A stretch of DNA of 64,000 nt from a virus (lineage: Duplodnaviria > Caudoviricetes), in the IMG/VR virus record IMGVR_UViG_2788500073_000001, positions 16,313 to 80,312 of that record. One strand, 5' to 3'. Of this stretch, positions 13,166 to 61,867 are shown piece after piece (position 1 is the stretch's first letter; each line of letters opens with the position of its first letter). Position numbers and translations under genes: made by a program. Under the pieces are notes generated by a model. It had not been told where the DNA came from and did no database searches. It was given only the letters and a program-made list of their open reading frames with translations.

Positions 13166-13338
13166 TTGAATTGGCAATAAAAAAGGCACGGTCGTGCCCA
13201 AAAGGGCGCAATCGTGCCGTTAGGTTTCACACCGGCCAGCTGTCAGCATGGACAGAAGGCCTTACTTTACTGCCTCGGTGGGCAGCGAATACTTTCATGG
13301 AATACCTAGAGTGTACCCCCGTTTTTGTATCGTGTCAA
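13166..13338 (-). promoter_or_regulatory. dispersed promoter-leader-terminator repeat, copy 1
   Basis: TTGACA-17-TACACT, structured leader, GGCACG...CGTGCC-T6 terminator; near-identical to 7 other copies. Confidence 0.92.
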
Positions 13339-13370
13339 CACATCTTTGTTTTTTAATTCTTTTTAACACG

Positions 13371-14711
13371 TTATTTTCCCAATCTCTCCTCCAGAAGCAT
13401 CCGGTCCTCCGCTGTTATGGAGTCTCCACCCATGGCAAATTCAATCAGGTCAGAGACGGAATTATTTAACCCAACCCCGTTATAGCTGCTCAGGTTGTCC
13501 ACATCGGAAAACCGGCGGAACAGCGTTTTGTAGACCCTGACCCCCGTGAATGGATCGACAACGGAAGCCGTCATTTCAATAGCCGCGCTCTGGCTGCCTG
13601 TTTCTGTGCTGGTTAAGATGAAATAGCGAAGGCTGCACTCCAAAGAAGCCATACGTTCTTTCATCGCCTCCTCCATACCGGAATAATCATCAAATTTTCG
13701 CTGATAGGAGGGATAGGTGGAGCTGATGGCGAAATGGCTGTCCAGATCGTCCCCGCCAAAGGAAAGTGTGGCCAGTGCGTCCATATCGCTCTTTTGAATG
13801 CCATCCACTGCCGTGTTCAGATATTCAACCAAGTCTTCATTGCCGAAAGCAGCTTCGGAAATCTCCCGTGCGTTGCCATAATCGTTTTTGAGCAGAAGGT
13901 CACCGCCGCGGGTGCCCTGGAACTCCACAGCGCCCCAGAAGAACGCATACTGGGGGATTTCATCGCCATAGGTATAGGATGTGGGATAATACAGCATGGG
14001 CACATCATCTTCTATCAGGAACTCCAGCTTTACAAGATCTGTGCTTGCCGGAACACTGCCCATATCCATAGCAGAAATCGCCGCTGCCGCCCCTGTGGCT
14101 TTGAAAGAGGTCATCTCCTGATCGTATGCGGAATCTTCCCCTGCCGCAAGCTCAGGTGCTCTGGAGGCCATGTAGGGCGTTGTGACAGCGAGTGTAACGG
14201 TAACAAAATTGGACTGGCTGGGATCACCTCTGATTTCCAGTATCTCATAGGTCGTGGCACTCCCCATATTTCGGAACGCATCGCCGATCGCCTCGTCCGC
14301 CAGACAGGTGTCCAGCATCAGCCGAAAGGGGTTATATTCCCCGCCGAAGGTGCGCGGTGAAACCTGCTGTTCGATGGTCTGCTCGTCAAGGGCCAACAAC
14401 TTCGGAAGCATCTCCTCAATATTCCGGTCAACCTCTTCTTTTGTCAGCGTTGTGGGGGAGAGGTTGGAAAAATCCACTTCCGGGTAGGGCTGCTCATAAT
14501 CCTGGTTGGTAGAATCAATATCCGGGATCTCCGATACCTGGGAAGACGATCCTTCCTGCTCACTGGAGAGGGAAGAAGAAGGCTCGCTTTCCGAACTGCC
14601 TGGCTCCTCCGTTGGCTCAGAGGACGGCTTTAAAAGCAGGAAGGCGCCGATTGCGACGACAGCTGCCGCTGCAATCAGCAGTGCCAGCGTTTTGGGTGAT
14701 AGCTTTTTCAT
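13371..14711 (-). CDS. membrane-anchored/secreted acidic protein
   Basis: N-terminal signal/TM segment, Ser/Glu-rich linker. Confidence 0.7.
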   Translation of the reverse strand: MKKLSPKTLALLIAAAAVVAIGAFLLLKPSSEPTEEPGSSESEPSSSLSSEQEGSSSQVSEIPDIDSTNQDYEQPYPEVDFSNLSPTTLTKEEVDRNIEEMLPKLLALDEQTIEQQVSPRTFGGEYNPFRLMLDTCLADEAIGDAFRNMGSATTYEILEIRGDPSQSNFVTVTLAVTTPYMASRAPELAAGEDSAYDQEMTSFKATGAAAAISAMDMGSVPASTDLVKLEFLIEDDVPMLYYPTSYTYGDEIPQYAFFWGAVEFQGTRGGDLLLKNDYGNAREISEAAFGNEDLVEYLNTAVDGIQKSDMDALATLSFGGDDLDSHFAISSTYPSYQRKFDDYSGMEEAMKERMASLECSLRYFILTSTETGSQSAAIEMTASVVDPFTGVRVYKTLFRRFSDVDNLSSYNGVGLNNSVSDLIEFAMGGDSITAEDRMLLEERLGK

Positions 14712-14726
14712 TTGACAATCTCCTTT

Positions 14727-15230
14727 TTAGAAATGTGGAAGGGAAAATAGTTTTCTTTTTGCGACTGACCGGATTGCGGACGCTGGTATGTAGGGGTTCT
14801 CCCAGTACCGGGCGTCATACGAGTGCTGACGGTTATCCCCCAGAAGCAGGTAGCAGCCTTCTGGAACTTGAAATATCTGCTCCTGGCCCTCCCTCTGGAA
14901 TGACACATATTCCTCCCGAAGGGTTTTACCGTCAACAAAAATTGTCCCATCATCGGCAATTCGGACCTCTTCGCCGGGAAGGCCAATAATCCTCTTGATC
15001 AGCATGGAGCCATCCTTTTCAAAGACGACAATATCTCCCCGTTCCAGTTCTGAAAAAACTCGGCTGCCCAAAAGGACATCGCCGCTGTTTAATGTGGGCG
15101 ACATGCTTTCGCTGGGGACATACATCAGCATAAATACGCCTTGGAACAGAATGGTGGGAATCAACATAGCCAACGCCAGCAATACGATAGCTTTGCCGAA
15201 AGAAACCGTGTGAACTGGATGCTGCGTCAT
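14727..15230 (-). CDS. lepB: signal peptidase I
   Basis: SESMSPTL, IKRIIGLPGE, GDNRQHSYDARYW. Confidence 0.93.
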   Translation of the reverse strand: MTQHPVHTVSFGKAIVLLALAMLIPTILFQGVFMLMYVPSESMSPTLNSGDVLLGSRVFSELERGDIVVFEKDGSMLIKRIIGLPGEEVRIADDGTIFVDGKTLREEYVSFQREGQEQIFQVPEGCYLLLGDNRQHSYDARYWENPYIPASAIRSVAKRKLFSLPHF

Positions 15231-15233
15231 ACC

Positions 15234-15734
15234 TTACTCCAGACCGGATTTAGGCGGCCGGTCCTCCACAAATTCGGTGGCGTCCCCTGCAGATTCCTCC
15301 CATTCTTCATCGCTGGGCAATTCGAAGTCCTCCGCGTGAAAGAAATCCGGCTGAGTCGTCATTTTCAAAGACTCATCCAGCTTGGGATGCGCCGGATCGG
15401 AAGTACCGTTTGAGACATAATTGGAAGAATCTAAATAGCCCTCCAGCATCATGGGCATTTGGAGATGGAACCTGTACTCGGATTCCTCCGGCGCGTCTTC
15501 ATTCCGGATATAGTCGTACTTGCCATCGTAAATCTCTTCATTGAAAACATCTTCCGCCATCCACTTGGCCACGTCCGCTTTGGCGACAACGGCATTCAGC
15601 CCCACCGCCGATACCGTTACAGCAGCAGACGCCAACGCAATAGCGGAAAGGTTCCGGGGCGTGAAAAACTGGCCGTAATACCGCCTGGTGTGCTGAAGGC
15701 AGGCTCGAAGATTTGTGTGGATCCGCTTCATCAA
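15234..15734 (-). CDS. hypothetical exported protein
   Basis: Hydrophobic N-terminal segment; operon spacing. Confidence 0.6.
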   Translation of the reverse strand: MMKRIHTNLRACLQHTRRYYGQFFTPRNLSAIALASAAVTVSAVGLNAVVAKADVAKWMAEDVFNEEIYDGKYDYIRNEDAPEESEYRFHLQMPMMLEGYLDSSNYVSNGTSDPAHPKLDESLKMTTQPDFFHAEDFELPSDEEWEESAGDATEFVEDRPPKSGLE

Positions 15735-15736
15735 AA

Positions 15737-16177
15737 TTACTCCTCCTTCCGGGATTTTTGACTTCTGAGGGTCAAGGTGTAGGGGCTCTCAATCCGGTCG
15801 ATTGTCATAATACCGGACGCCTTATCGAATACGGCAGCTTGGATGCCGACGGCCGTTTGCTCACTGGCTGATGGGATTGCTCCCGCGGTGTTGCCTGGAT
15901 AGCTCACCTTCACCGCGGCGTCCTTGGGGACTACCACAAGACGGTAGCCCAGCAAGTCCAAAAAGCCGGGAATACGCTGGAATTTCAACCCATAGTTTGT
16001 GAGCCAGCCCATAAAGCCGCTATAACTTGGCCTGTTCCCGGAGGAGGTATCGACCTCGGAAGCCTCCCTGCAATATAGCTCGTAAAAATCCTTATAGGTC
16101 ATCTTATTGGCAGAAAGCAGGAAGCGGAACAGCTTGTCTTCCACTATCCGGCGGCTGTATGGCCGTTCTTTCGGCAT
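15737..16177 (-). CDS. hypothetical protein, possible HTH
   Basis: RBS AGGAG before ATG 16177; C-terminal 'LDLLGYRLVVVPK' is typical of XRE-like proteins. Confidence 0.55.
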   Translation of the reverse strand: MPKERPYSRRIVEDKLFRFLLSANKMTYKDFYELYCREASEVDTSSGNRPSYSGFMGWLTNYGLKFQRIPGFLDLLGYRLVVVPKDAAVKVSYPGNTAGAIPSASEQTAVGIQAAVFDKASGIMTIDRIESPYTLTLRSQKSRKEE

Positions 16178-16702: not shown

Positions 16703-16732
16703 TATAGTAAAAAAAACAGAAAAAACGACCAA
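16703..16732 (-). promoter_or_regulatory. class II element promoter (copy 2)
   Basis: TTGGTCGT-N15-TACTATA. Confidence 0.65.
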
Positions 16733-16779
16733 AATAAAAAAAGCCTCCACGAGGGAGGCTTTTTCTGCTTTTGAACGGC

Positions 16780-21732: not shown

Positions 21733-21810
21733 GACAATTCCTTCTTTCATTGGTTTTTGGCTTTTCTCTATGTAAAAAGGCCATCCCTTCTGACCAGGAA
21801 GGGACAGGCC

Positions 21811-21980
21811 TTGAATTGGCAATAAAAAAGGCACGGTCGTGCCCAAAAGGGCGCAATCGTGCCGTTAGGTTTCACACCGGCCAAGCGTCAATGACGAAAG
21901 GCCTTACTTTACTGCTTCGGTGAGCAGCGGATACTTTCATGGAATACCTGAAGTATATGCCGCTTTTTGTATCGTGTCAA
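21811..21980 (-). promoter_or_regulatory. dispersed promoter-leader-terminator repeat, copy 2
   Basis: TTGACA-17-TATACT; variant inner hairpin CGTC-ATT-GACG, 3 nt shorter. Confidence 0.92.
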
Positions 21981-28160: not shown

Positions 28161-28236
28161 AAAATCTCCTTCTTTTCTTGGTTTTTGGTATGATCTATAT
28201 GGAAAGGCCCCTTCCCTTGACCAAAGGGAAGATTCC

Positions 28237-28409
28237 TTGAATTGGCAATAAAAAAGGCACGGTCGCGCCCAAAAGGGCGCAATCGTGCCGTTAGGTTTCA
28301 CACCGGCCAGCTGTCAGTATGGACAGGAGGCCTTACTTTACTGCTTCGGTGAGCAGCGGATACTTTCATGGAATATCTGAAGTGTACCCCCGTTTTTGTA
28401 TCGTGTCAA
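28237..28409 (-). promoter_or_regulatory. dispersed promoter-leader-terminator repeat, copy 3
   Basis: Same cassette, upstream of the AAA/VWA operon. Confidence 0.92.
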
Positions 28410-29965: not shown

Positions 29966-30125
29966 AAAAAAGGCACGGTCGCGCCCAGAAGGGCGCAATC
30001 GTGCCGTTAGGTTTCACACCGGCCAGCTGTCAACAGGGACGGGAGGCCTTACTTTACTGCTTCGGTGAGCAGCGGATACTTTCATGGAATACCTGAAGTG
30101 TACTCCCGTTTTTGTATCGTGTCAA
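29966..30125 (-). promoter_or_regulatory. dispersed promoter-leader-terminator repeat, copy 4 (lacks the downstream extension)
   Basis: Same promoter, leader and terminator. Confidence 0.9.
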
Positions 30126-30364: not shown

Positions 30365-30404
30365 GTTGCAAATGCGGTGATTCCTCGTCTTTTATTATGA
30401 GAGG
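30365..30404 (+). promoter_or_regulatory. putative ECF-sigma promoter (autoregulatory)
   Basis: GTTGCA-N15-CGTCTT...TATGAGAGG, repeated at 31820-31859. Confidence 0.6.
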
Positions 30405-31003
30405 TGATACATTTGATTTTCCTTATGCTGCAGGCAATCGAAGACGAATCTGACCGCAACCGGCTGTCCGCCTTCTATTTGCAGTATTATGGCCTGCTGA
30501 AAGCCAAAGCAGAATTTGTTTTGAAGCAATTCCATATTGGGGGTTCTTCCAATTTGGCTGAAGATATGGTTCAGGATGCGATGGCCAAAATGATCCAGAA
30601 TATTGATACGATTTCAAAATTAAGCGATCCTCAGCTGGTAGCTTACGGTGTCAAAACGGTACAATCCTGCGCCACTGACTACTGCCGGAAAATGATTTCA
30701 CAGCAAAAAGCCATTGAAGATAAAGGGATTTTAGAAGGAGCTGATGAGGATAAAGTATGGGAAGACTATACCGGTCTTTTTACCGAAGAAGATCCCATGC
30801 TTTTTCTTGGAGGGGTTCTGGCGGCCCTTCCCCAAAAAAGTCGTGATGTCCTCCTCTACAAACATTATTTTGACTATAGCGACAAAAAAATCGCGGAGCT
30901 TTTAGGGATACAAGAAAATTCAGTACGGATGGCACTGTCAAGAGCAAGAAAAAAGGTACGAAAAACTTGGGCTGCAATCAAAAAGGAAAAAGGAGAAGGA
31001 TGA
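30404..31003 (+). CDS. ECF RNA polymerase sigma factor
   Basis: 'AEDMVQDAM' region 2; 'IAELLGIQENSVRMALSRARKK' region 4. Confidence 0.88.
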   Translation: MIHLIFLMLQAIEDESDRNRLSAFYLQYYGLLKAKAEFVLKQFHIGGSSNLAEDMVQDAMAKMIQNIDTISKLSDPQLVAYGVKTVQSCATDYCRKMISQQKAIEDKGILEGADEDKVWEDYTGLFTEEDPMLFLGGVLAALPQKSRDVLLYKHYFDYSDKKIAELLGIQENSVRMALSRARKKVRKTWAAIKKEKGEG

Positions 31004-31006
31004 CAG

Positions 31007-31759
31007 ATGATTTATAATAATGAGCAGCAGCTTTTAAAGGTAGAAGACGAACTATTTAATTTGGCACTATTGGGACTTTTGGAGATTGAAGGGCGTAAAC
31101 TGATCGAGGAAAAAGAGCAGATGGTCCAAAGGGGAGAATACGCTTCCCCGCCTGCGGATCAGCTGCGCCGCATTGAAAAAATGATCCGGCAGGGCGAAAG
31201 AAAAAAAGTGTTCCAATCATCTATTCGAAAAATTTCCCCTGTTATTTCAAAGGTCGCTGTGTGGTTTATGGTGTTTATCATGGGAACCGGCACCGTGGTC
31301 TTTGCCTCAGCTGATATACGCGAAGCGCTCTATCGGCTGATTGTTGAACAACACGAAAGATATTCGCAAATTGAACTGCAGCAGGGAGAAGAAAATAATG
31401 CTGAATATATCTCCAATGCCGCTTCTTATGTTCCGTCCTATGTGCCGGACCAAATGGAATTAGATCAGATTGAAAAATTGCGGTACAGTGTCAACGCATC
31501 CTATATTGGAAAGGACAATGAGGAACTGTACCTGACCTTCCGGCAGATCGATCCTACCGGCAGCGCGGAAATCCGCGTGGACACCGAGGATGCGAATCGG
31601 ATTGAAAGCGTTGCGATAGGAAGCAGCGAAGGGCTCCTGGTTGAAAAAGACGGATCTATTCAGATCGTCTGGAACGCAGATGGGACTGTTTTGACGGTGA
31701 TCTCCAATCTCAACGAGGAAGAGGTGCTCCGTTTTGCACAGGGGATTCAAACTCCATAG
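31007..31759 (+). CDS. anti-sigma factor (DUF4367-like)
   Basis: Single TM, 'YVPSYVP', 'DTEDA', 'IVW...ISNLNEEEVLRFAQGI'. Confidence 0.78.
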   Translation: MIYNNEQQLLKVEDELFNLALLGLLEIEGRKLIEEKEQMVQRGEYASPPADQLRRIEKMIRQGERKKVFQSSIRKISPVISKVAVWFMVFIMGTGTVVFASADIREALYRLIVEQHERYSQIELQQGEENNAEYISNAASYVPSYVPDQMELDQIEKLRYSVNASYIGKDNEELYLTFRQIDPTGSAEIRVDTEDANRIESVAIGSSEGLLVEKDGSIQIVWNADGTVLTVISNLNEEEVLRFAQGIQTP

Positions 31760-31819: not shown

Positions 31820-31859
31820 GTTGCATTTTGCCTTGTCTCCCGTCTTATTCTATGAGAGG
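31820..31859 (+). promoter_or_regulatory. putative ECF-sigma promoter (target gene)
   Basis: GTTGCA-N15-CGTCTT...TATGAGAGG. Confidence 0.6.
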
Positions 31860-31877
31860 ACTAAAGGAGGCAATCAC

Positions 31878-32270
31878 ATGAAATCAATGAAGCGCGCTCT
31901 CAGCCTGGGCCTTGCCCTGATGGTTATGACGGCAGCTACCAGCGTAGCCTACGCCAGATATGCCTACATCCGCCAATTTACCTTTGACGGGGATATTGGT
32001 GCGACATCGGTGTACGGGGAGGCCTATGTGTCGCTGGATGGACAGGACTCATCCATGACCACCATCACCTTACAACGCTCCAGCGATGGAGGCCGTACCT
32101 ATAAGACCGACCGGGTGCTGACTGCCAGGCATACGACCAGCAGCTCCTACTCTGCGGTGGGCGAGGCCGATAACCTCAACCCCGCCTATGAGTACCGGCT
32201 GAAAGCTGAGGTCTTCGTCTATGACGAAGATAACAACGAAATCGACTACGACGTAGCATATATCGACTAA
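31878..32270 (+). CDS. small secreted beta-rich protein
   Basis: RBS AAGGAGG; Sec signal ending in AYA. Confidence 0.75.
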   Translation: MKSMKRALSLGLALMVMTAATSVAYARYAYIRQFTFDGDIGATSVYGEAYVSLDGQDSSMTTITLQRSSDGGRTYKTDRVLTARHTTSSSYSAVGEADNLNPAYEYRLKAEVFVYDEDNNEIDYDVAYID

Positions 32271-32435
32271 ACCCAAGTGTTCCTCTCACAATTTCATAAA
32301 AACTCAGGGTGTGCAGCGCAAAACGACGCTTGCCATACCCTGAGTTTTTTATCCACTGAAAGGGGGCGATCCCGATGATGTAACCTATCTTCGCCGGAAA
32401 ATCCACACGAAAAGCAACAATGGGAGGTTGAGAGA

Positions 32436-33137
32436 TTGATTGCTTTTTCCAGAACCGATATGGAACTGCTCGCTGACAGCATTATCACTGATTATCGTGG
32501 GAGTGTGTTGACTCCATTCAGCCCGGTTGACGTTGACCGCTTGGCTTCTGAATATCTGGGCTTGGATGTTTCCTACATGGATTTTCCCCAGGATTCCGAA
32601 ATCCTGGGCGTGACCGCCTATTCACAGTGCTGCCTGCACTTAAAAGGCCAGGATATTCAACTTAATTCCAATACTGTCCTCCTGGCCAAATCCCTGAAGC
32701 CCGGGGAACGGGGCGCCAATGAAGGCCGCCGGCGCTTTACTCTGGCTCACGAGTGCGCTCATCAGATCCTCTACCGGTATGAATCGGCTGTGGCACGGGA
32801 AGAAATCTGCCGGCCTTATTCCTGCCGGCGGGCGTTCTCTTTGCGGGAGCTGAAAACCCATGAAGATTGGAATGAGTGGCAGGCAGATGCCCTTGGTGCC
32901 GCGCTGCTGATGCCGGAAGAGCTTGTGAGGCGCGTGGTATACCTTTTTACCCCTGATAATAAGCTGACGCGCTATGGGGACTGGTTCCCGCCGGAGGAGT
33001 ACCGGCGTCTGGACAATATGAGCCGCTTCCTTGGCGTGTCGCACGCTGCTTTGCTGATCCGCCTCAAACAGCTGGGACTTCTGGAGCAGAAGAGATCCGG
33101 TGATTATCGAAATCCTTTGGATGTGGTGGCTGCATGA
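32436..33137 (+). CDS. ImmA/IrrE family metallopeptidase
   Basis: RRRFTLAHECAH, EWQADALGAALLMP. Confidence 0.9.
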   Translation: MIAFSRTDMELLADSIITDYRGSVLTPFSPVDVDRLASEYLGLDVSYMDFPQDSEILGVTAYSQCCLHLKGQDIQLNSNTVLLAKSLKPGERGANEGRRRFTLAHECAHQILYRYESAVAREEICRPYSCRRAFSLRELKTHEDWNEWQADALGAALLMPEELVRRVVYLFTPDNKLTRYGDWFPPEEYRRLDNMSRFLGVSHAALLIRLKQLGLLEQKRSGDYRNPLDVVAA

Positions 33138-33579: not shown

Positions 33580-34014
33580 ATGGCACGACACAAGAAAATC
33601 CGCGACAAGTATTTCATCAATCTGAACGGCCAGAAAATTGAGGTCACGAGGGAGGTCTATGAAGCCTGGTACGGCGGGGAGCGGAAGGAACGCTACCTGG
33701 AGGAGCGCGAGCGTGATTTCGGGGTTTATCCTGCCAGCAGTCTCACCGATGCCGACGGAGAACTCGATCCCCTGGACGCTGCCCAGTCCTCAGCAAATAC
33801 GGAAGAAGAAGTGGAGCAGAAGGAAGAGTATGCGGAACTCTACAAAGCCCTTCATACTTTGCCGGAAAAGGAGCGCACAGTGCTCCATCAGCTCTTTTTC
33901 CAGGGACTTACCATTGCGCGGATAGCCGAGCTGGAAGGCCTCGATGAGAGCAGCATCCGCTGGAGAAGGGACAGCGCCATCAAGAAGCTGAAAAAATATT
34001 TTGAGAAAATCTGA
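33580..34014 (+). CDS. sigma-70 region 4 protein (Tn916 Orf7-like)
   Basis: 'IEVTREVY', 'ALHTLPEKER...IAELEG...AIKKLKK'. Confidence 0.8.
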   Translation: MARHKKIRDKYFINLNGQKIEVTREVYEAWYGGERKERYLEERERDFGVYPASSLTDADGELDPLDAAQSSANTEEEVEQKEEYAELYKALHTLPEKERTVLHQLFFQGLTIARIAELEGLDESSIRWRRDSAIKKLKKYFEKI

Positions 34015-34173: not shown

Positions 34174-35160
34174 ATGGCACTTGTAAATGGTGCGACTTAT
34201 CGGTTTGAGAACCGTGCTGATCCTAACCGTTCTCTGAATGTGTACGGCAACAGCCCTGCTTCTCTTGCCAATGTTTGCCTGTGGACCTCGGATGACGATG
34301 ACATTTGCCAGCAGTGGGTTTACATGAAGTCTGGCAGCCATGCGTATCTCGTGTGCAAGGGCAATCAGAATCTGGCCCTGGATCTCTACACCGGTTCCGG
34401 TTCTTCGACTGTGAAGAACTACAACGCGCATGTCTATGCGCCTTCCGAGACCTCTTACATTGAGATCGAGGAGTCGGACGGCGATTACATCCAGATTAAG
34501 CTGGAGGAGTATTCCAACAAGTATCTGACTGCCAACCAGGGCAGCAACGGTACTTCCGGCGGTAAGGATGTCAATGCGGCTGGTAACGTTTACTTCTACA
34601 ACGGAGGTCTGACCGACGACAGCCAGGATTGGCTGCCGGTTCGGCTGGATGGAGGTTCTGCCCCTGAACCAGGTGATGAAGGCGAAGGTAATGGCACAAT
34701 CACTGTTGGCCAAAGACCTTCTACCCTTAATTACAATCGTGCTTGCTATGGGCCTAGCTTCAACCGTTTCCATGAAGATTATGCTCCGGGTAATGGGACA
34801 GCACAGTGCACCTGGCATTGTTATGGCCGAGCTTTCGAGGTGCTCGGTAAAACGATTCAGTTCTCTGGTTCCGGTGGTCTTCACGGGAAGTATTGGTATG
34901 ATCGAATCACCAATGGAGAGCAGTCGAGCGTTCCCAAAGCAAATTCCATCGCAGTATGGGATGATGGAGGCAGTTATGGTCATGTTGGTTATGTAGAGAA
35001 GGTAGACAGTAATTATGTTTATGTTTCTGAGGCTAACTGGGGCCCTGATTACACCATGAATGTTCTGGATGCGACTGACGGCCAGGTAAAGCGATTCCCG
35101 AGAGATGATATGGATCGTGGTAGTTACGCTTTCGTAGGCTATGTCCACCTTGACATTTAA
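34174..35160 (+). CDS. ricin-B-like + CHAP peptidoglycan hydrolase
   Basis: QQW/QDW ricin-type repeats; CHAP motifs QCTWHC, YGHVGYVE, VSEANW; no signal peptide. Confidence 0.85.
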   Translation: MALVNGATYRFENRADPNRSLNVYGNSPASLANVCLWTSDDDDICQQWVYMKSGSHAYLVCKGNQNLALDLYTGSGSSTVKNYNAHVYAPSETSYIEIEESDGDYIQIKLEEYSNKYLTANQGSNGTSGGKDVNAAGNVYFYNGGLTDDSQDWLPVRLDGGSAPEPGDEGEGNGTITVGQRPSTLNYNRACYGPSFNRFHEDYAPGNGTAQCTWHCYGRAFEVLGKTIQFSGSGGLHGKYWYDRITNGEQSSVPKANSIAVWDDGGSYGHVGYVEKVDSNYVYVSEANWGPDYTMNVLDATDGQVKRFPRDDMDRGSYAFVGYVHLDI

Positions 35161-35164
35161 AGCA

Positions 35165-35203
35165 GAAAAAATCCTGGGAGGCTTTCCCTCCCAGGATTTT
35201 TTT
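35165..35203. terminator. bidirectional terminator
   Basis: AAAAAATCCTGGGAGG...CCTCCCAGGATTTTTT. Confidence 0.85.
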
Positions 35204-36014
35204 ATAAAACAGAGCAAGAAAGAAAACGCCAGCCATATTCTTCAGAGTATTCTAAAGTCACTGTTGAAGATGTTGCAGGATCATTTTCCGAAGAAGCAGC
35301 AGTACGAGTTTCACATGACAATATTGCAATGCCATTTTTAATATTACAGTCTATAATGGTTGTCGTTGAGCTGATGCCACCTCCACCCATAGGTGCCCAA
35401 TATCCGTCAATTTCCGGATCATAATTTTCAATCATATCGTGAAGATTATCTGATGGAATTTTAAAATACTCCTGTAAGGCTTGATCCATTATCCGTGCCG
35501 GTGTAAAAGGATAATCATAAAAATTTTGATTTTGAAGGGTTCTTACAGCATATTGATATGTGCTTTCCAAATTATCTCCTAGTATATAGCATCCAGCCGT
35601 ATAAAGATAGTATCCATCTTCATCCGAATTAGAATCATCGAAATTAGAGGCAAAAATGTTAGAAGGTGCTATTTTGTTTATTTTTTCGGTGAATAATGCC
35701 ATCAATTCTGGGGTGATATCCTGATTTAAAACTGCATCAGTCGAGTCCGACTCGGTGGAATCTGAAGAACTATAAGTATTGGGATCTTCTTGATTATTTA
35801 TCACAACAGAACTGCTATTACTTTCAGATGAATTTGATGCCTCGACTTCCGATGATGGTGAACTACTCTCCGGCTCATCTTCTGGAGCAGAAGATGAGGG
35901 CATCTCAATTACAGATGATGGCCGATTCTCTTCCGCAGGAGATTCCATGCGGATTGTACAGCCTGTTGTGAGCATGATTACAGTGAACACTGCCGCCCAG
36001 ATCCTTTTTTTCAT
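35202..36014 (-). CDS. lipoprotein
   Basis: Lipobox LTTGC, Ser-rich linker, visibly AT-rich. Confidence 0.8.
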   Translation of the reverse strand: MKKRIWAAVFTVIMLTTGCTIRMESPAEENRPSSVIEMPSSSAPEDEPESSSPSSEVEASNSSESNSSSVVINNQEDPNTYSSSDSTESDSTDAVLNQDITPELMALFTEKINKIAPSNIFASNFDDSNSDEDGYYLYTAGCYILGDNLESTYQYAVRTLQNQNFYDYPFTPARIMDQALQEYFKIPSDNLHDMIENYDPEIDGYWAPMGGGGISSTTTIIDCNIKNGIAILSCETRTAASSENDPATSSTVTLEYSEEYGWRFLSCSVL

Positions 36015-36062
36015 TAAAATCTCTCCTTTTTAATTTTTCCAGATTGTGAGGTGATATGAATA

Positions 36063-36500
36063 ATGGACGAAAAAGTGAAGATTGCCCTTTCTGGCTTCTG
36101 TGGCGCACTGGCTGCGTTGGCAGAGAATTATGGCTTGATCCTGACGCTCTGCTGTACCTTCATTCTTATTGACCTGGCTACCGGCCTTGCCAAAGCGAAG
36201 ATCCAGGGCAAAATCAATAGCGACACCGGCTACAAGGGCTTCTGGCGCAAGGCAGCCATGCTGGCGGCCTTGGTATTCGGCATCTGTCTGGATGTGCTCT
36301 TTGACTATGTAGCCGGACTCGGTGTTGTTTCAATTACCGTATCTTCGCCGGTGGGGCGCATTCTGGCACTCTACATAGCGATCAACGAGTGCATTTCGAT
36401 CTGTGAGAACCTGATCGCCTGCGGCGTGAAGATGCCGAAGTTTCTTTCGGCCGCTCTGGCCGCCGCGAAGGACGGCCTGGATCAAGATCAGAAAGAATAA
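36063..36500 (+). CDS. phage holin family protein
   Basis: 'DLATG...INSDTGYKGFWRK...NECISICENL...GVKMP'. Confidence 0.88.
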   Translation: MDEKVKIALSGFCGALAALAENYGLILTLCCTFILIDLATGLAKAKIQGKINSDTGYKGFWRKAAMLAALVFGICLDVLFDYVAGLGVVSITVSSPVGRILALYIAINECISICENLIACGVKMPKFLSAALAAAKDGLDQDQKE

Positions 36501-40994: not shown

Positions 40995-41024
40995 TATAGT
41001 AAAAAAAATAAAAAAAACGACCAA
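40995..41024 (-). promoter_or_regulatory. class II element promoter (copy 3), overlapping the ncRNA terminator
   Basis: TTGGTCGT-N15-TACTATA. Confidence 0.65.
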
Positions 41025-41503
41025 TTCGGCGCGCTCCCGAATTGGTCGTTTGGAGTGTCCACACCTGCTGTGCAGTCAGGTGCTTTCACTGCCGTGATTT
41101 GGTTGCACACTCCAAATCACACATTGCATAAAAGGAATCCAACAATCCCGCTTTCAGGCTATAGAGCCCTGATCCCAGAGCGGGCAGGGATTTCGCATCA
41201 AACCCAGGCCGGTGCCTCTTCTCCCATGCGAACAGGAGGGGCCATGCGAACTTTATACGGTGTTACCCGTTCAGCCCCGGCATGGTGGGGGGTGTTGCTG
41301 CGTCTCCTGAACACAGCGCAAAGGATGTTCACGCTCTGTTCAGGAGACGAAAGGGAAAATACATTAACGAGACGGAGTTATGCGCTTTTTGGAAGCGACC
41401 CACATTCTCGCCGGTCCATTTGCGGTTTCCTGGAGTGTTCTCAACAGGAAGGGCCGCCATGCTCACCCATTTTACCGGGCAAGGAAAGTATTACATGGAA
41501 TAC
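41011..41503 (-). ncRNA. candidate ~490-nt structured stand-alone RNA
   Basis: Own promoter 41510-41538, terminator 41011-41051, no minus-strand ORF in the track, long hairpin 41301-41349 and others. Confidence 0.65.
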
Positions 41504-41538
41504 ACTTAAATTGTAGACGCATTTTTGTATCGTGTCAA
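41486..41538 (-). promoter_or_regulatory. partial ninth repeat copy (promoter and palindrome only)
   Basis: TTGACACGATACAAAAA...TACAAT, then GTATTCCATGTAATAC. Confidence 0.85.
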
Positions 41539-42936: not shown

Positions 42937-43013
42937 TTTGTATCCTCCTTTTGTTTTTGGTTAAGGTTTCATCGACATCTATAGGAAAAGAACCTACTTG
43001 GTATAGAAGGTCC

Positions 43014-43186
43014 TTGAATTTTCACAAAAAAAGGCACGGTCACGCCCAAAAGGGCGCAATCGTGCCGTTAGGTTTCACACCGGCCAGCTGTCAGCATGGA
43101 CAGGAGGCCTTACTTTACTGCTTCGGTGAGCAGCAGATACTTTCATGGAATATCTGAAGTGTACCCCCGTTTTTGTATCGTGTCAA
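43014..43186 (-). promoter_or_regulatory. dispersed promoter-leader-terminator repeat, copy 5
   Basis: Same cassette upstream of the ssb operon. Confidence 0.92.
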
Positions 43187-48339: not shown

Positions 48340-48413
48340 GTTAATGGCTCCTTTCCTTCTTTGGGTTTTTGGTTTTCTATCTGAAAGGGTTCCTTCCTGA
48401 CCGGGAAGAAGCC

Positions 48414-48586
48414 CTGAATTGGCAATAAAAAAGGCACGGTCACGCCCAAAAGGGCGCAATCGTGCCGTTAGGTTTCACACCGGCCAGCTGTCAACATGGA
48501 CAGGGGGCCTTACTTTACTGCCTCGGTGGGCAGCGGATACTTTCATGGAATACATAGAGTGTACTCCCGTTTTTGTATCGTGTCAA
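48414..48586 (-). promoter_or_regulatory. dispersed promoter-leader-terminator repeat, copy 6
   Basis: Same cassette. Confidence 0.92.
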
Positions 48587-48602: not shown

Positions 48603-49010
48603 TTATTCTGCTTCTGCCCAGTTTTCGATGCCCAGATTCGGGACGCGCATGAACTCACGAACATTGTTTGTTACTAGAATTAGCCCCTCAGCTCTGGCGT
48701 GCCCGGCGATCAGCATATCCATCGTTCCAATAGGCGTACCTCGCTTTTGTAGGTAGGCGCAGATATTTCCATACTCAGCAGCTGCCAGATCGTCAAAAGG
48801 TAGAATGTCCAGAATGGCCAAAAATTGGATCAGCGCCATCTGGTTCTTCTCTGGATTGACGCTTTTTTCTACGCCATGTTCCAATTCCGCCAAGGTAATT
48901 GCAGAAATGCAAAGCCCTTTTGGCAGATTGTCTTTCAGCCGCCGCAAAACCTGCTCTGGCTTATTTTTGATGGCGTAGATGCAGATGTTTGTGTCCAGCA
49001 TGTAGGTCAT
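48603..49010 (-). CDS. vapC: VapC PIN-domain toxin
   Basis: [30 protein letters not shown]. Confidence 0.93.
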
Positions 49011-49237
49011 AGGCTTTCGCGCTCCTTCTGGACACCCTGATCTCGCCCATCCTCAAAAATATCGCTGGTGAAGCTGTTCAAGCCATCCATAAAGGTTTGC
49101 CAGGCTGCTTCTTTCGGGAGTAACACGACGGCTTGCCCGATGCGCTGTACATAAACTTCATCTCCAGAAAAACGAAATTTTTTTGGCAGGCGCACGGCTT
49201 GACTCTTCCCGTTTTCAAAAATTTTTGCGGTATCCAT
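49007..49237 (-). CDS. vapB: VapB AbrB-type antitoxin
   Basis: [20 protein letters not shown]; ATGA overlap with vapC. Confidence 0.93.
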
Positions 49238-50411: not shown

Positions 50412-51329
50412 TTAAATGTGGCAATCCACGATTGTGATGAAATACTCCGGGTCTATATTTGCCAAAACATGTTCCCACGCTTCGGAAAATGTCTGGAATG
50501 ACTCCTGAGAACCATCGTGGGTGGCCCACCAGCCCATCTGGCCTTTTTGCTGCCATCCTTCATCCGGCGTTACAAATGCCCAGGGCTGGAAGCTGGCTCG
50601 TTCTTTGGCAAAGGCCTCTTTTGTTCCATAGAAATCGCGGTAATATTCCGGCCGATAGTAGCCATCCATCCCCTCTGGAGCTTCGCCTTCTTTGAGAGGT
50701 TCACCATCCACATAGACCTCCCAGAACCGAATCGCCTTGTCATAAAGCGCCTGGTCCATTGTGAAGTCAATGTCTTTGATCTGGGCCTGGTCGTACCGGT
50801 CCGGTTCATCCAGTGGCTTGAGGCTGCCATCGCCCATAAGGAATTCCCACGAAGGATCTGCCTTATAGCCCCTTGAGGCCTTGAGCAAACCGCGGAAACG
50901 TCCGCCGATCCGCCAGTAGTCCCAACGGGCATTGGGATTCTCCCAATATCCGAAGCGGCCAGTTTCGGGATCAGGTTCGTCGTACCCGCAGCAATCTCGC
51001 ATATATTGCTCAAAAGTCGGGTACAGCTCCTTGTAACTTACGAGGACTTCTTTGCAATCAGGCGGGATCAGATAATCGTCCCATGTACTGCCGAATTCTT
51101 TTTCCTCTTTCAGAAAAGCCTTATCCCATGGGGAAAGCAGCTTACCATCCGGTGTTTGAATCCGGCGGGCAAATTTTGTCTCGTAAACTTCCTTTTCTTC
51201 CCTTTCAGCGTCCACAAACTCCAGAAATTCACGGGGACAATCGCCCATGTTGTTTTCCTGGTAGGGTGCCAAAAGCCGTTCCACATCCTCTGGATGCTTA
51301 GAAATGACTGCTACTGCAAAGTGACTCAT
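50412..51329 (-). CDS. phage-type hypothetical protein
   Basis: MSHFAVAV...NPNARWDYWRIGGR...VDCHI. Confidence 0.75.
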   Translation of the reverse strand: MSHFAVAVISKHPEDVERLLAPYQENNMGDCPREFLEFVDAEREEKEVYETKFARRIQTPDGKLLSPWDKAFLKEEKEFGSTWDDYLIPPDCKEVLVSYKELYPTFEQYMRDCCGYDEPDPETGRFGYWENPNARWDYWRIGGRFRGLLKASRGYKADPSWEFLMGDGSLKPLDEPDRYDQAQIKDIDFTMDQALYDKAIRFWEVYVDGEPLKEGEAPEGMDGYYRPEYYRDFYGTKEAFAKERASFQPWAFVTPDEGWQQKGQMGWWATHDGSQESFQTFSEAWEHVLANIDPEYFITIVDCHI

Positions 51330-51413
51330 GGTTTTTTGCTCCTTTCGCTTTTTGGTTAAAATTCGTTTCTCTATGTAAAAAGGCAGCCTCCCTCGACCAA
51401 AGGGAAGCTAACC

Positions 51414-51586
51414 TTGAATTGGCAATAAAAAAGGCACGGTCGTGCCCAAAAGGGCGCAATCGTGCCGTTAGGTTTCACACCGGCCAGCTGTCAACATGGA
51501 CAGGAGGCCTTACTTTACTGCTTCGGTGAGCAGCGGATACTTTCATGGAATACCTGAAGTATATGCCGCTTTTTGTATCGTGTCAA
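51414..51586 (-). promoter_or_regulatory. dispersed promoter-leader-terminator repeat, copy 7
   Basis: Same cassette, TTGACA-17-TATACT. Confidence 0.92.
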
Positions 51587-51706: not shown

Positions 51707-52744
51707 TTAAGAGGCTCTTTTTTCAGAACATTTCGACTTCCGATAGCTTCGGTGAGTACGAGAAACAAAAGTAACTTCTATGGTGTCCTCCTTCATGGTC
51801 AGCTGCGAGGTGCAGCCGGCGTCACCATCATAAATGCAGATAGAATCTCCGATACGGACCTTATTCAGCAGCCAGGCCGCCACATTATCCTGGGAGATCA
51901 GATTGCACAGTACCTCTTCATAACATTGGGATCCACTCGTCGGGAAATCGAAGAATATGTTTTCAGCCAAACGAAGTTTGAAAGGCTGTCCCAGAAGGGC
52001 AACGGTGTAATCCTTATCCTGCACTCTATCCCAGGTGTTTGCAATACTCCGGCAAAAGCGGGGATGCCGCTGCAGAACTTTCCGGCCAACAGAAATGAAA
52101 GAGGACAGGGAATTCCCTTTGAGCCCAAGGCGCTCAAATATCTGCTCCTTAGAATAGCCCTGATAATACATTGCCACAGCCTGGACGCTCTTTTTCTCTT
52201 TTTCCGAATTCAGGGTATCTGCAATACTCAACATCAAAGTAAATATTGCTTGGCTACTGGTTCTAAGGACCAATGGGTTCTGCTGCGCCAGCGAGGCGTA
52301 CTCGTCCGGCGCTTCCTGCTCAAGCGTATCAAGGCAGATCGGGTCATTTTTGTCTTTTCCGTTCTTAATCTCCCGGCACATCTCGCGCCGAATGCAAACA
52401 GAGGCATACGTTGAGAACTTGGTGCCGTTGGATTCATCAAAATTCTCTACTGCCTGCCACAATGCAATCAAACCGGCCTGATAGATGTCATCTTCATTAG
52501 AAGACGTAACACCATGCACAGACTTCATGCAGCTGCGCACCAAGCCGATGTGTTTTTGTACTTCCTGTTCCACCTTCGCACGTCGATCCTGCTCTGACAT
52601 TGCAGACGGCTGAGGGATAATATAAATCGCCGTGTTGGGCTTATGAATATCAAAGAAAACCAGCTGAACCTGATTTTCGAAAGGGACTGACCGCTGTGCG
52701 GCGATCCGCTTGCTTTGATTAACCATAGGTTTCATGCCACACAC
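51707..52744 (-). CDS. element-encoded sigma-70 family factor with C-terminal extension
   Basis: Region 2 'DDIYQAGLIALWQAVENFDESNGTKFSTYASVCIRREM'; region 4-like 'YYQGYSKEQI'. Confidence 0.82.
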   Translation of the reverse strand: MCGMKPMVNQSKRIAAQRSVPFENQVQLVFFDIHKPNTAIYIIPQPSAMSEQDRRAKVEQEVQKHIGLVRSCMKSVHGVTSSNEDDIYQAGLIALWQAVENFDESNGTKFSTYASVCIRREMCREIKNGKDKNDPICLDTLEQEAPDEYASLAQQNPLVLRTSSQAIFTLMLSIADTLNSEKEKKSVQAVAMYYQGYSKEQIFERLGLKGNSLSSFISVGRKVLQRHPRFCRSIANTWDRVQDKDYTVALLGQPFKLRLAENIFFDFPTSGSQCYEEVLCNLISQDNVAAWLLNKVRIGDSICIYDGDAGCTSQLTMKEDTIEVTFVSRTHRSYRKSKCSEKRAS

Positions 52745-52799: not shown

Positions 52800-52828
52800 A
52801 TTATAACAAACCCAACTGAGAAAGTCAA
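52800..52828 (-). promoter_or_regulatory. sigmaA promoter of the element sigma gene
   Basis: TTGACT-17-TATAAT with extended TG. Confidence 0.75.
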
Positions 52829-53815: not shown

Positions 53816-54361
53816 TTAGAGTTCCAAATCCTTTTCGATTAGTTCCACAACCAAGGTCAACAATGGCATTTCCTGCTCAGATATGGGAGCCATGGCGTCA
53901 TCCGCGATCACTACAAGCGCGCCATAGAGATCTCCCTGGGCTACGATCGGGAGCGCGGCAATAGCTTCAATACCTCTCAAGCCTACGGGTTTAAGTAGGT
54001 TCGTTTCTTTTCCATCCCACACAAAAGATTGCCGCTCCCGCATCAAGGTTTCCATATCATTAGAAACAGCCTGTCCCTGAATTTTATGGCGCTGCGAACC
54101 ATACACAACAACTACTCGGTCAGTGTCACATACGGCAATCGTCCTGCCCATCAACTTGCTGAGTGCATCCGCGTATTTCTCCCCCAAGGATTTAACATCC
54201 AACAATGGGGAATATTTTTGAAAGATCACACGATCCTCTTCCACCAAAATTTCCATCGGATCATTGGCCTGGAGCCGAAGGTTTCTGCGGATCTCCTTTG
54301 GAATTACAATTCGGCCAAGGCTATCAATGCGTCTGACAATACCTGTTGCTTTCATCGTCAT
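53816..54361 (-). CDS. spoVT: SpoVT homologue (AbrB + GAF)
   Basis: MKATGIVRRIDSLGRIVIPKEIRR...KYSP...CDTD...PIVAQGDLYGA. Confidence 0.9.
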   Translation of the reverse strand: MTMKATGIVRRIDSLGRIVIPKEIRRNLRLQANDPMEILVEEDRVIFQKYSPLLDVKSLGEKYADALSKLMGRTIAVCDTDRVVVVYGSQRHKIQGQAVSNDMETLMRERQSFVWDGKETNLLKPVGLRGIEAIAALPIVAQGDLYGALVVIADDAMAPISEQEMPLLTLVVELIEKDLEL

Positions 54362-56800: not shown

Positions 56801-56831
56801 ATATAGTAAAAAAAATCAAAAAAACGACCAA
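56801..56831 (-). promoter_or_regulatory. class II element promoter (copy 5)
   Basis: TTGGTCGT-N15-TACTATA. Confidence 0.65.
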
Positions 56832-56872
56832 AAAGAAAAAGCCTCCCCGAAGGGAGGCTTTCGAAGTAATGG

Positions 56873-59239: not shown

Positions 59240-59240
59240 G

Positions 59241-60380: not shown

Positions 60381-60413
60381 AGGAAATCCTCCTTGATAAA
60401 CAAAGAAGGGTGT

Positions 60414-61607
60414 TTACACACCCTTCCGTCCAATGTACTTATCATTATAGGTATACTGCCCGGGCAGATCGTGACCGGCGAAATCAAACTTGAGGGCGCG
60501 GGCGAATCTCTCGCGATATTCCGCCAGTTCCTTCGGGTTTTCGCTTTCTCCCATGAGAAGGGAAAGCACTTCGCTGAGGGAGGAGTACACATCATACGCT
60601 GTCTGCGGCCTTTCTCCCCAAATGATCTTCCGGTTTTCAAATACGGGAGCTCCGTATTTGGCCGGGATCTTCAGAAATTTGAGCATGGCCAGCAGCGCAG
60701 TCGCCGGATGGTCCAGTACCGTTTCCACCAGTTTCCTGATGCACTCGCCGGAATCCTGAAAACGCTTGTCGATCAGCCGCAGCGACTTCTCGAATTCTTC
60801 CAGGCTGGTATTCCCGTTGTGCTCCAGCTTCAGCGGCATACAGTAGTTCAGGCCATAGCGGTCATCCGTCAGGCGCATTTGAGGCGAAATTGTGATCGCC
60901 TTGCGCCCGTTGTCGGAAGTGCTGATGCAAACCGACTGCTCATAGGTCAGATCCCGTGAGGCGGCATCGAAGGGGATCTCTACCTTGCACTCCCCCAGCT
61001 GCCAGGTGGCGCTGGTATAGCTGTGCGTGTAGTTACCCTTCACAAATTTTGCAGGCTTTTCACATGCAAAATACGATGCTGCTGCTTCCATCAGATCTTC
61101 GGCGGGGATAAGGTTGTATTTCCTCCCCAGGATCGCTTCAACCTTGCCGTTGTTGAAGATCAAAAGCCCTTCACCTGGGGTGAAATCCGCATAGTCATTG
61201 AGATGCGCTGCCAGGATCTCCGGCGGCAGTGCGTTCAGCGCATCACCGGAGATCCGCAGGCGGTCGTAAATGGACGCCAGGGCGGTATCCCGCAGCATAA
61301 AGGTTTGACCATTGGCTCTCAGAAAGATTTTGGTGCCGTTTGCGATGCTGTCATAGGCAAGCGTCTGCAGTACCTCGTCGTTCTCAAACCTCTCCTTCGC
61401 TTCTTCTGCGGTCGGCATTGCCCTGAAAATCAGGTTTTTGATCTTGACTGTGCCGGTGGAGCGGGCGGCGCCCAGCACCTTTGTCGCTGCCAAGAAGGCG
61501 CTTTCATCGTTGGTTTCGTAACAGAACCTGTCCTGATATGCTTTTGCAAACCGGGATTCTGTCTCGGTGATCGCGCAGGAATTCACCATTGTCATTGTCG
61601 TAGCCAT
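60414..61607 (-). CDS. hypothetical protein (DUF932-like)
   Basis: 'STSDNGRKAITI', 'LEH', 'TAYDVY' loosely match DUF932-type proteins; first gene after repeat copy 8. Confidence 0.5.
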   Translation of the reverse strand: MATTMTMVNSCAITETESRFAKAYQDRFCYETNDESAFLAATKVLGAARSTGTVKIKNLIFRAMPTAEEAKERFENDEVLQTLAYDSIANGTKIFLRANGQTFMLRDTALASIYDRLRISGDALNALPPEILAAHLNDYADFTPGEGLLIFNNGKVEAILGRKYNLIPAEDLMEAAASYFACEKPAKFVKGNYTHSYTSATWQLGECKVEIPFDAASRDLTYEQSVCISTSDNGRKAITISPQMRLTDDRYGLNYCMPLKLEHNGNTSLEEFEKSLRLIDKRFQDSGECIRKLVETVLDHPATALLAMLKFLKIPAKYGAPVFENRKIIWGERPQTAYDVYSSLSEVLSLLMGESENPKELAEYRERFARALKFDFAGHDLPGQYTYNDKYIGRKGV

Positions 61608-61694
61608 AGAATGTTCCTCCTGTTGTTCGTTTCTGGTTAATTTTCGTTTCTCTATGTAAAAAGGCGGCCTCCCTCGACCAAAGGGAAGCTAACC

Positions 61695-61867
61695 TTGAAT
61701 TGGCAATAAAAAAGGCACGGTCGCGCCCAGAAGGGCGCAATCGTGCCGTTAGGTTTCACACCGGCCAGCTGTCAGCATGAACAGGAGGCCTTACTTTACT
61801 GCCTCGGTGGGCAGCGGATACTTTCATGGAATACCTGAAGTATATGCCGCTTTTTGTATCGTGTCAA
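61695..61867 (-). promoter_or_regulatory. dispersed promoter-leader-terminator repeat, copy 8
   Basis: Same cassette upstream of the recombination operon. Confidence 0.92.

Follow-up and report, generated by a model that had tools for sequence, protein, structure and literature searches.

Conserved sequences that are repeated ahead of several establishment operons, the EGeRS, have been described for plasmids of the pLS20 family (PMC8708921). EGeRS1 is a GC-rich, highly structured sequence of 420–750 bp that blocks read-through and showed no constitutive promoter, and EGeRS2 contains a strong promoter under a repressor. The EGeRS2-type promoters of p576 are controlled through promoter and operator by Reg576, in a regulon characterized by a dual heptamer operator and a ribbon-helix-helix repressor; the abstract makes no mention of leader terminators (PMC6294495). 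The present study concerns a cassette that occurs eight times in a 64-kb stretch of DNA, referred to below as the window, which comprises bases 16313–80312 of the 80,312-bp IMG/VR record IMGVR_UViG_2788500073_000001; the record is classed as a provirus and is incomplete (74% by CheckV). As with the EGeRS, a repeated regulatory sequence stands upstream of co-regulated establishment operons of a Gram-positive conjugative element and defines a regulon, and the comparison, drawn in a first-pass annotation of the same DNA, is apt as a concept (PMC8708921). Unlike the EGeRS, the cassette packs two covarying hairpins and a tandem of intrinsic terminators into ~210 bp together with a consensus promoter, and has no blastn match to plasmids. 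Membership of EGeRS1 was considered and rejected, given the ~210-bp unit with a promoter of its own as against the much longer EGeRS1 without a constitutive one.

A promoter with a terminator close behind it is also the basis of the lambda gates. At PR′-qut-tR′ with Q, and at nut with N, a short RNA is made until a polymerase-modifying signal allows read-through there and at later terminators; nut, and put of HK022, are promoter-proximal RNA hairpins. The cassette resembles these gates in its closely spaced promoter and terminator, which would give a short RNA. It differs from them in number (8–10 gates per element rather than one or two), in that no Q or N homologue was found among the proteins scanned and a test for a boxA-like motif failed, and in belonging to an integrated conjugative element (ICE) of a Clostridium and not to a phage.

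Among conjugative elements of Firmicutes, Tn916 carries canT, an RNA-based, cis-acting processive antiterminator with insulating terminators that serves conjugation genes (PMC11658703), and pLS20 carries conAn, in which a large RNA and a protein bring about processive antitermination at the start of the conjugation operon (PMC8191782). Both combine terminators with an element-encoded processive antiterminator; in their abstracts, each is described for a single site or operon, whereas the cassette is short, is present in many copies and heads operons outside the type IV secretion system (T4SS). The cATT of pLS20 is a zipper-type attenuator in which an upstream segment complementary to the terminator extends a long stem (PMC13401043). 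It shares with the cassette a leader attenuator with an intrinsic terminator upstream of conjugative-element genes, but no such terminator-complementary upstream segment was seen in the cassette leaders. In a literature search of partial coverage, we found no multi-copy leader of the cassette kind beyond the papers on EGeRS, canT, conAn and cATT.

Among the major vehicles of gene transfer between bacteria are the conjugative elements of gut Clostridia, yet outside the plasmids of Bacillus next to nothing is known of how their genes for establishment and DNA handling are timed. We conclude that the cassette is an undescribed family of terminator-gated leaders that defines the regulon of an ICE, and we propose, from comparative sequence analysis, a mechanism by which the gates may be opened. 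The cassette marks the regulon directly, in that the genes behind a cassette belong to it. It is, moreover, a compact and testable control module, of which a cultured strain, Anaerotruncus colihominis JM4-15, carries ten natural variants.

A cassette of promoter, leader and tandem terminators

A repeat search of the window returned eight copies of the cassette in two adjoining 91-nt families (76–100% identity to the reference), and a 242-nt family with seven copies. When one cassette was compared by BLAST with the whole 80,312-bp record, eight full matches were obtained (92–100% identity, E of 1.7e-68 or lower), together with an additional ninth match that was partial (47 nt). The eight cassettes are all encoded on the minus strand, and their −35 hexamers begin at 61867, 51586, 48586, 43186, 30125, 28409, 21980 and 13338; the first-pass annotation had listed eight near-identical minus-strand repeats ahead of operons, and the repeat search, BLAST and the alignment all bear this out. 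The parts follow one another as a sigma-A promoter, a leader with two hairpins (P1 and P2), a terminator (T1), a short box, a second terminator (T2) and a ribosome-binding site (RBS), at the following coordinates:

61661–61867, minus strand: cassette c61k; −35 at 61867–61862, −10 at 61844–61839, P1 at 61814–61799, P2 at 61790–61763, T1 and its U-run at 61747–61708, box at 61704–61696, T2 at 61696–61661; the first gene, from ATG 61607, encodes a 397-aa protein and is followed by YqaJ and RecD2.
51380–51586, minus strand: cassette c51k; −35 at 51586–51581, −10 at 51563–51558, P1 at 51533–51518, P2 at 51509–51482, T1 at 51466–51427, box at 51423–51415, T2 at 51415–51380; ATG at 51329.
48386–48586, minus strand: cassette c48k; −35 at 48586–48581, −10 at 48563–48558, P1 at 48533–48518, P2 at 48509–48482, T1 at 48466–48427, box at 48423–48415, T2 with a short U-run at 48415–48386; the operon, from ATG 48339, includes an RNase H-like gene and UvrD.
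42968–43186, minus strand: cassette c43k; −35 at 43186–43181, −10 at 43163–43158, P1 at 43133–43118, P2 at 43109–43082, T1 at 43066–43026, degenerate box GAAAAUUC at 43023–43015, T2 divergent and weaker; the operon, from ATG 42936, encodes SSB and DUF7768.
29966–30125, minus strand: cassette c30k; −35 at 30125–30120, −10 at 30102–30097, P1 at 30072–30057, P2 at 30048–30021, T1 at 30005–29966, no box and no T2; start codon at ~29915, counted from the alignment.
28204–28409, minus strand: cassette c28k; −35 at 28409–28404, −10 at 28386–28381, P1 at 28356–28341, P2 at 28332–28305, T1 at 28289–28250, box at 28246–28238, T2 at 28238–28204; the operon, from ATG 28160, encodes AAA_5, VWA and PDDEXK_2 proteins.
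21777–21980, minus strand: cassette c21k; −35 at 21980–21975, −10 at 21957–21952, P1 at 21927–21912, short P2 at ~21903–21879, counted from the alignment, T1 at 21863–21824, box at 21820–21812, T2 at 21812–21777; the first gene, from ATG 21732, encodes an SNF2-type helicase protein (open reading frame of up to 1688 aa).
13138–13338, minus strand: cassette c13k; −35 at 13338–13333, −10 at 13315–13310, P1 at 13285–13270, P2 at 13261–13234, T1 at 13218–13179, box at 13175–13167, T2 at 13167–13138; the operon, from ATG 13082, encodes a 414-aa protein, primase-like and clamp-like proteins, DUF5131 and a ParM-like protein.

The promoter (TTGACA-17-TA(C/T)ACT) is close to the sigma-A consensus, matching it at 10–11 of 12 positions, and a consensus scan also called the cassette promoters, as it did T2 for two cassettes. 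P1 reads CUGC(U/C)-CACCGA-(A/G)GCAG, with a U-A pair in five of the eight copies and a C-G pair in the other three. A linker, UAAAGUAA in the window copies, leads to P2, which has two parts, a GGCC/GGCC stem and an inner hairpin that in the 21980 copy is reduced to a shorter CGUC/GACG stem. T1 is a strong intrinsic terminator with a run of six or seven U in all eight copies, and every leader folds better than all 200 of its own shuffles (z of −4.0 to −6.2). The promoter, the U-A/C-G swap in P1, the linker, the GGCC-framed P2 and the terminator with its U-tract had each been claimed in the first-pass annotation, and each is seen in the alignment.

The length of ~170 bp that had been given to the repeat is, however, too short: the conserved unit measures ~205–220 bp, as seven of the eight copies extend beyond the U-run of T1 into a box and a second terminator. 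The box, also in seven copies, is (G)CCAAUUC (given as GCCAAUUC or AUUGCCAAUUCAAGG), in the degenerate form listed above in the 43186 copy. T2 has a stem that varies from copy to copy around a constant GGUC loop, and is followed by a U-run, a conserved (C/U)AUAGA tail, the RBS and the start codon; the 30125 copy has T1 only, without box or T2. On these structural predictions, most copies of the cassette hold two intrinsic terminators in tandem between promoter and gene. Further terminator-like sites lie inside some of the operons (50391–50364 and 44333–44294). A separate terminator at 61933–61908 lies upstream of the c61k promoter, which argues that T1 and T2 act on the cassette's own transcripts and do not serve to end the preceding operon.

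The genes behind the cassettes encode primase-like, clamp-like and ParM-like proteins, an SNF2-type helicase, AAA_5, VWA and PDDEXK_2 proteins, SSB, UvrD, an RNase H-like protein, YqaJ, RecD2 and a PIN toxin. The earlier gene assignments hold broadly; of note, the SSB Pfam match is in the 43186 operon, and the two genes behind the 30125 copy have no Pfam match. The proposal that the repeat is an undescribed cis-regulatory unit of promoter, leader and terminator heading operons of DNA metabolism and establishment type is supported.

A related conjugative element in Anaerotruncus colihominis

The first gene of the 61867 operon (397 aa) has a homologue in A. colihominis JM4-15, on a contig that also carries a syntenic element. 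The proteins of the two elements are mostly 40–75% identical and both elements have the same tRNA-integrase end, with a different gene order. The A. colihominis element runs on into genes for a VirB4/PrgI-type ATPase and an M23 peptidase, and since it carries these T4SS genes it is an ICE. Judged from the synteny, the window contains the non-T4SS half of a relative of this ICE; its host is a gut Clostridium, and the element is an integrated conjugative element and not a phage. Besides the genes behind cassettes, the window encodes a sortase, a signal peptidase, a tyrosine integrase beside a tRNA gene, an ImmA-like peptidase, an AbrB/SpoVT-like regulator and three sigma-like proteins. Neither oriT nor the element's relaxase was located (a Rep_trans search gave no match, and one weak relaxase match, C34:163778–164065, lies past the last scanned gene of the T4SS region, which ends near 145 kb), so it is not established that the cassette half is a leading region.

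Ten cassettes, together with a copy of the promoter alone, occur in the A. colihominis element, all in the same orientation and within 53.6–106.2 kb of its contig; covariance-model and sequence scans found none in its T4SS half. These cassettes share the architecture described above and are far more diverged from one another than are the window copies. Their promoter consists of TTGACAC, CUGGAAAAAAUCC, four free nucleotides and TACAAU. P1 has other sequences and 3-nt loops of varied sequence, as against the CACCGA loop of the window, and P2 is again in two parts with other sequences; these cassettes retain the linker UAAGUAAGG and have in T1 a clean stem of 14 bp, behind which come box, T2 and tail (T2 in nine of the ten copies, the exception being the copy at 80260).

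In both elements the cassettes stand mostly ahead of orthologous operons, and some occur in one element only. There is no cassette in A. colihominis at the place matching c28k (28204–28409). The A. colihominis cassette at 102702 of contig C34 precedes a SpoVT-like gene that has a homologue without a cassette in the window; for the genes behind the cassette at 98521 of the same contig, the comparison showed no window homologue.

Conservation of the hairpins at the RNA level

Seventeen copies served to build a covariance model, against which the ten A. colihominis copies were aligned afresh. Such model-fitted alignments, together with folds of single sequences, were used because RNAalifold, run on MAFFT alignments, failed to recover P1, the inner part of P2 and T2 owing to register shifts. 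In the A. colihominis copies, 92.9% of cells were standard pairs, compared with 40–46% when the partners were slid by 1–3 columns; 13 of 31 pairs showed changes on both sides, and none of 500 shuffles reached the observed paired fraction or covariation score. For 37 distinct rows from all sources the corresponding values were 83% and 34–39%, the window-type P1 being mis-registered in this alignment, which lowers helix 1. P1, P2 and T1 are kept at the RNA level through compensatory changes, and the earlier claim that the hairpins are maintained by pairing changes is supported by those found in the diverged A. colihominis relative. The many G-U pairs on the sense strand fit an RNA of that strand. 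T2 was examined in a pool of 22 distinct sequences (window, metagenomic near-twins and A. colihominis), all of which fold into stems of 10–15 bp with, between them, 19 different 5′ arms; at least four U occur in the next 7 nt in 18 of the 22.

Distribution of the cassette

A third lineage was found in five other Oscillospirales genomes, with one to three copies each, ahead of distant homologues of the same gene module. From a TTGACU-17-UAUAAU promoter, its layout runs through a single hairpin and a conserved linker of another sequence to T1, which is followed by a GCCAAU(U) box, T2, a small third hairpin and an RBS; it lacks both P2 and the UAAGUAAGG linker. The order promoter, T1, T2 and RBS is thus seen in seven of eight window copies, nine of ten A. 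colihominis copies and all five third-lineage copies.

When 151 Oscillospirales genomes were searched with the covariance model, the ten copies of A. colihominis were recovered, but otherwise only one weak match without the P1–P2 part. A degenerate pattern matched 116 stretches in metagenome contigs, of which nhmmer retained 14 real loci, all near-identical to the window type; their 21 full copies (20 distinct) add little diversity. In viral contigs, no match was found by exact 21-mers, by a related-locus search with a single protein or by alignment of the cassette, and the one match to the degenerate pattern was judged to be due to chance. A blastn search of plasmid and phage records with the cassette gave no match. 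Three runs labelled RNA-Seq cover scattered pieces; all are contigs, probably derived from DNA, and carry no information on RNA ends.

A search of 401 genomes for a U-run with the box behind it produced 90 matches, spread over 77 genomes, against ~48 (counted by hand) for the reversed pattern. Of 30 such loci inspected, most lie in coding sequence, and a few (L193, L199, L200 and L201) resemble a terminator with a box. At L201 (G290:C67:2206–4064), in an unrelated Oscillospirales genome, a terminator, UUGCCAAUUC and another strong terminator lie in this order behind a tRNA gene, in the T1-box-T2 layout but away from any cassette.

A shared promoter spacer and a ninth promoter

Among the A. colihominis copies, the −35 hexamer and the first 13 nt of the spacer are 93.7% alike, as against 35.6% for the last 4 nt of the spacer and 54% for the start region. 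The conserved half of the spacer differs between the two elements and is common, in each, to a further promoter without a leader. From this pattern of conservation, it looks like an operator for an element-specific DNA-binding protein. This ninth promoter is located as follows:

41010–41538, minus strand (also L019:18800–19480, minus strand): ninth promoter and ~500-nt candidate RNA; −35 at 41538–41533, −10 at 41515–41510, same spacer half, GUAUUCCAUG start region.

Behind this promoter come ~500 nt without a credible open reading frame, closed by a strong terminator, and A. colihominis has conserved blocks of this region behind its matching promoter. The candidate RNA has no Rfam match. It could be a large non-coding RNA that is co-regulated with the cassettes, and possibly a partner acting in trans. 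By a crude method, which speaks neither for nor against pairing, its duplexes with the leaders were no better than those of shuffled sequences (−124.1 versus −121.6, sd 6.9, and −126.4 versus −118.6, sd 6.6). A 60-nt repeat occurs at 16703–16762 and 56802–56861 (also at ~41000–41050), and on the minus strand comprises a terminator hairpin, GGUCGU, ~15 nt and UACUAU; the terminator of the ~500-nt RNA has the same layout.

A terminator gate as the proposed explanation

The explanation that we prefer, to which we assign a probability of about 45%, is a terminator gate on the regulon, which would open when a factor, recruited by way of the leader RNA, brings about antitermination, probably of the processive kind. 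The near-consensus promoter would fire into a leader of ~125 nt, made up of a short 5′ segment, P1, the UAAGUAAGG linker and P2, which runs into T1 and, in most copies, into T2 ~15 nt later. We infer that both stops act in vivo, in which case the default product would be a short RNA of ~125 or 175 nt and the operon would be off, to be switched on only when RNA polymerase reads through both. Such read-through would be brought about by an element-specific processive antitermination system recognizing the leader RNA, as at nut, put or canT; two covarying hairpins lie directly behind the promoter and might act on polymerase in the manner of put or canT. All eight cassettes here, and the ten of the relative, would then form one regulon in each element, and the operator-like spacer half would provide a second layer of control by an element-specific DNA-binding protein.

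Several observations favor modification of the polymerase over refolding of the RNA. When the leaders were folded up to the end of the T1 loop, 23 of 23 kept P1 (and P2 where the lineage has it), and the 5′ arm of T1 had no conserved partner; with no competing helix, a classical antiterminator is not indicated. The two terminators in series, the terminator-like sites inside operons and the lack of a competing helix together point to a polymerase-modifying mechanism, since one cis-acting or ligand-controlled switch cannot open both terminators and modification of the polymerase can. If read-through does depend on a factor, the cassette would add a new antitermination system and would explain how ~50 kb of potentially costly genes stay silent in the integrated state.

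There is also evidence that weighs against this explanation. The analysis identified no antitermination factor: a NusG paralog of the LoaP/RfaH kind (PF02357) gave no match in the 80-kb record, which is incomplete, and a single match in A. colihominis that is on contig C33 and not in the element on C34; ANTAR (PF03861) gave no match, although the control genomes gave none either, which makes that control uninformative; and no Q- or N-type family was present among the proteins scanned. T2 is missing from the 30125 copy of the window and the 80260 copy of A. colihominis, and the third lineage lacks P2 and the UAAGUAAGG linker, so that the recognized RNA feature, if any, is not universal. The alignments on which the pairs were counted were fitted to the model and lean toward structure, a bias that the slid controls share only in part. 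Finally, the likeness of the copies within an element may come from gene conversion and not from selection for a shared partner.

As to individual classes, the loops do not fit the hexaloop rule of ANTAR systems, in which the second of two hairpins overlaps the terminator, and P2 does not overlap T1 in our reading of the alignments. A 14-nt boxA-type motif of Gram-positive rrn operons, for which A. colihominis has three exact matches on short contigs, was rejected as a component of the cassette, as the start region of the window copies matches it at 9 of 14 positions, within chance by our estimate, and the A. colihominis cassettes at 4–5 of 14. A leader peptide was likewise rejected: the open reading frame from a conserved AUG is 22–26 codons long in the window and 1–27 codons in nine A. 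colihominis copies, and there is no AUG in the tenth or in three of the five third-lineage copies.

A fuller version of the gate hypothesis goes further, and we regard it as doubtful. In it, the cassettes would be an undescribed family of terminator-gate leader RNAs through which one new antitermination switch governs the entire regulon of an ICE (8–10 operons with ~50 kb of genes for establishment and DNA metabolism); this switch would have neither a NusG paralog nor a known antiterminator domain. The part acting in trans would be an uncharacterized regulator, such as a sigma-like protein, or the ~500-nt RNA, and the box GCCAAUUC, conserved across the three lineages, would be a new recognition element.

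Other explanations

We consider it unlikely that the promoters are governed by a repressor alone, as in EGeRS2, and that T1 and T2 are leaky dampers without regulation, which keep very strong promoters to a constant low output. An element-encoded DNA-binding protein would shut the nine promoters, which would fire briefly after transfer or induction; Reg576, acting on four p576 promoters, is a published analogue (PMC6294495). In favor of such a scheme, conservation in the diverged copies is as high in the upstream half of the spacer as in the hexamers, the leaderless ninth promoter has this half too, and the element encodes potential regulators in its ImmA/IrrE-like peptidase, a weak Cro/C1-type HTH match, the AbrB/SpoVT-like protein and the three sigma-like proteins. 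A repressor would, however, leave unexplained both the compensatory upkeep of P1, P2 and two terminators, and the conservation of box and linker between elements whose proteins are 45–70% identical. Nor was an operator-repressor pair identified. For a Reg576-type regulon, the repeated strong promoter with a conserved spacer half is present; no ribbon-helix-helix family was called among the proteins scanned, and the operator of the Reg576 paper does not occur in the spacer listing.

A Q-like gate is improbable. In it, polymerase would pick up a protein at a DNA site within the promoter or the first transcribed part, in the way of lambda Q at PR′-qut, and the short RNA would be a by-product comparable to lambda 6S RNA. 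The constitutive-looking promoter, the conserved spacer, the early motif UAUUCCA and a terminator ~100–125 nt downstream would all suit it, but a factor loaded on DNA has no need of the covariation seen in P1 and P2. The protein scan found no Q-family domain, and in our own reading of the listing no clear −10-like pause element is common to all copies.

We give still less credence to the idea that the cassettes are 8–10 copies of a gene for a ~125-nt RNA acting in trans, as a protein sponge or by antisense pairing, with the downstream genes expressed by incidental read-through. Small-RNA genes would also have a promoter of their own, a strong terminator, a conserved single-stranded linker and many copies, but every cassette is directly followed by an RBS and the leading gene of an operon in the same direction, in most cases without another promoter in between, and the sequences of P1 and P2 vary between the A. 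colihominis copies.

The riboswitch-like leader with pseudoknot and antiterminator, which was the first-pass reading, is not supported, and we rate a ligand-sensing mechanism as very improbable. There is indeed a structured leader ahead of a terminator, and the complementarity between the CACCG of the P1 loop and a downstream CGGUG is present in this element; loop and complement are nonetheless absent from the A. colihominis and third-lineage copies, so the pseudoknot is not conserved, and by our estimate chance alone would provide a 5-nt complement within ~60 nt about once in ten cases. The GCCG/CGGC helix put forward as antiterminator has only 4 bp and is absent when the nascent transcript is folded. 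No aptamer core or pseudoknot is conserved across the relatives (the P1 loop varies in A. colihominis, and P2 is absent from the third lineage), nor is there a conserved junction or core beyond a linker, and the terminators are in tandem. In Rfam, the whole window at gathering score returned only a tRNA; a permissive search with one cassette (E up to 10) yielded nothing beyond terminator-like noise, scoring 14.7 and 12.2 bits where the gathering scores are 41 and 100. Equally remote is a role for the hairpins on the transferred single strand, as priming sites (sso/ssi) or single-stranded promoters during conjugative entry, which the shared orientation of all copies and genes typical of an establishment or leading region (SSB, primase-like, helicases) would suit, but which is at odds with a promoter of the standard double-stranded −35/17/−10 type, with the U-runs and RBS behind the hairpins and with frequent G-U pairs (G-T pairs being poor in DNA), the orientation itself being confounded with gene direction.

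Other features of the element

At window 1978–4007, a tRNA gene adjoins the gene for a 588-aa tyrosine integrase; the matching A. colihominis integrase is 67% identical and lies at the left end of the syntenic region, and the A. colihominis contig holds a relative of a short open reading frame that overlaps the window's tRNA. This region is likely to be the attachment site and left end of the element.

The sigma-like genes comprise an ECF sigma factor with a DUF4367 partner (30404–31759, plus strand), a 144-aa protein with region 4 only (33580–34014, plus strand), and a 345-aa region-2 protein (51707–52744, minus strand) whose gene has a TTGACU-17-UAUAAU promoter of its own at 52828–52800. The ImmA/IrrE-like peptidase is encoded at 32436–33137 and, counted together with a 149-aa open reading frame, spans 31821–33137; the SpoVT-like protein is encoded at 53816–54361. 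These proteins and the ~500-nt RNA are candidate factors for read-through. A protein with ricin-lectin and CHAP domains and a phage-type holin are encoded at 34174–36500 (plus strand), with no virion genes nearby in the window, and the close relative of the element is conjugative. A PIN-domain toxin gene and a small upstream open reading frame (48603–49237, minus strand), likely a toxin-antitoxin pair, form the end of the 51586 operon, directly ahead of the 48586 promoter. A 452-aa protein encoded in the conjugation half of the A. colihominis element (L021:16456–17814, minus strand) has an S1 RNA-binding domain and is a further candidate RNA-binding partner; the part of the window's element that would match this region lies beyond the record.

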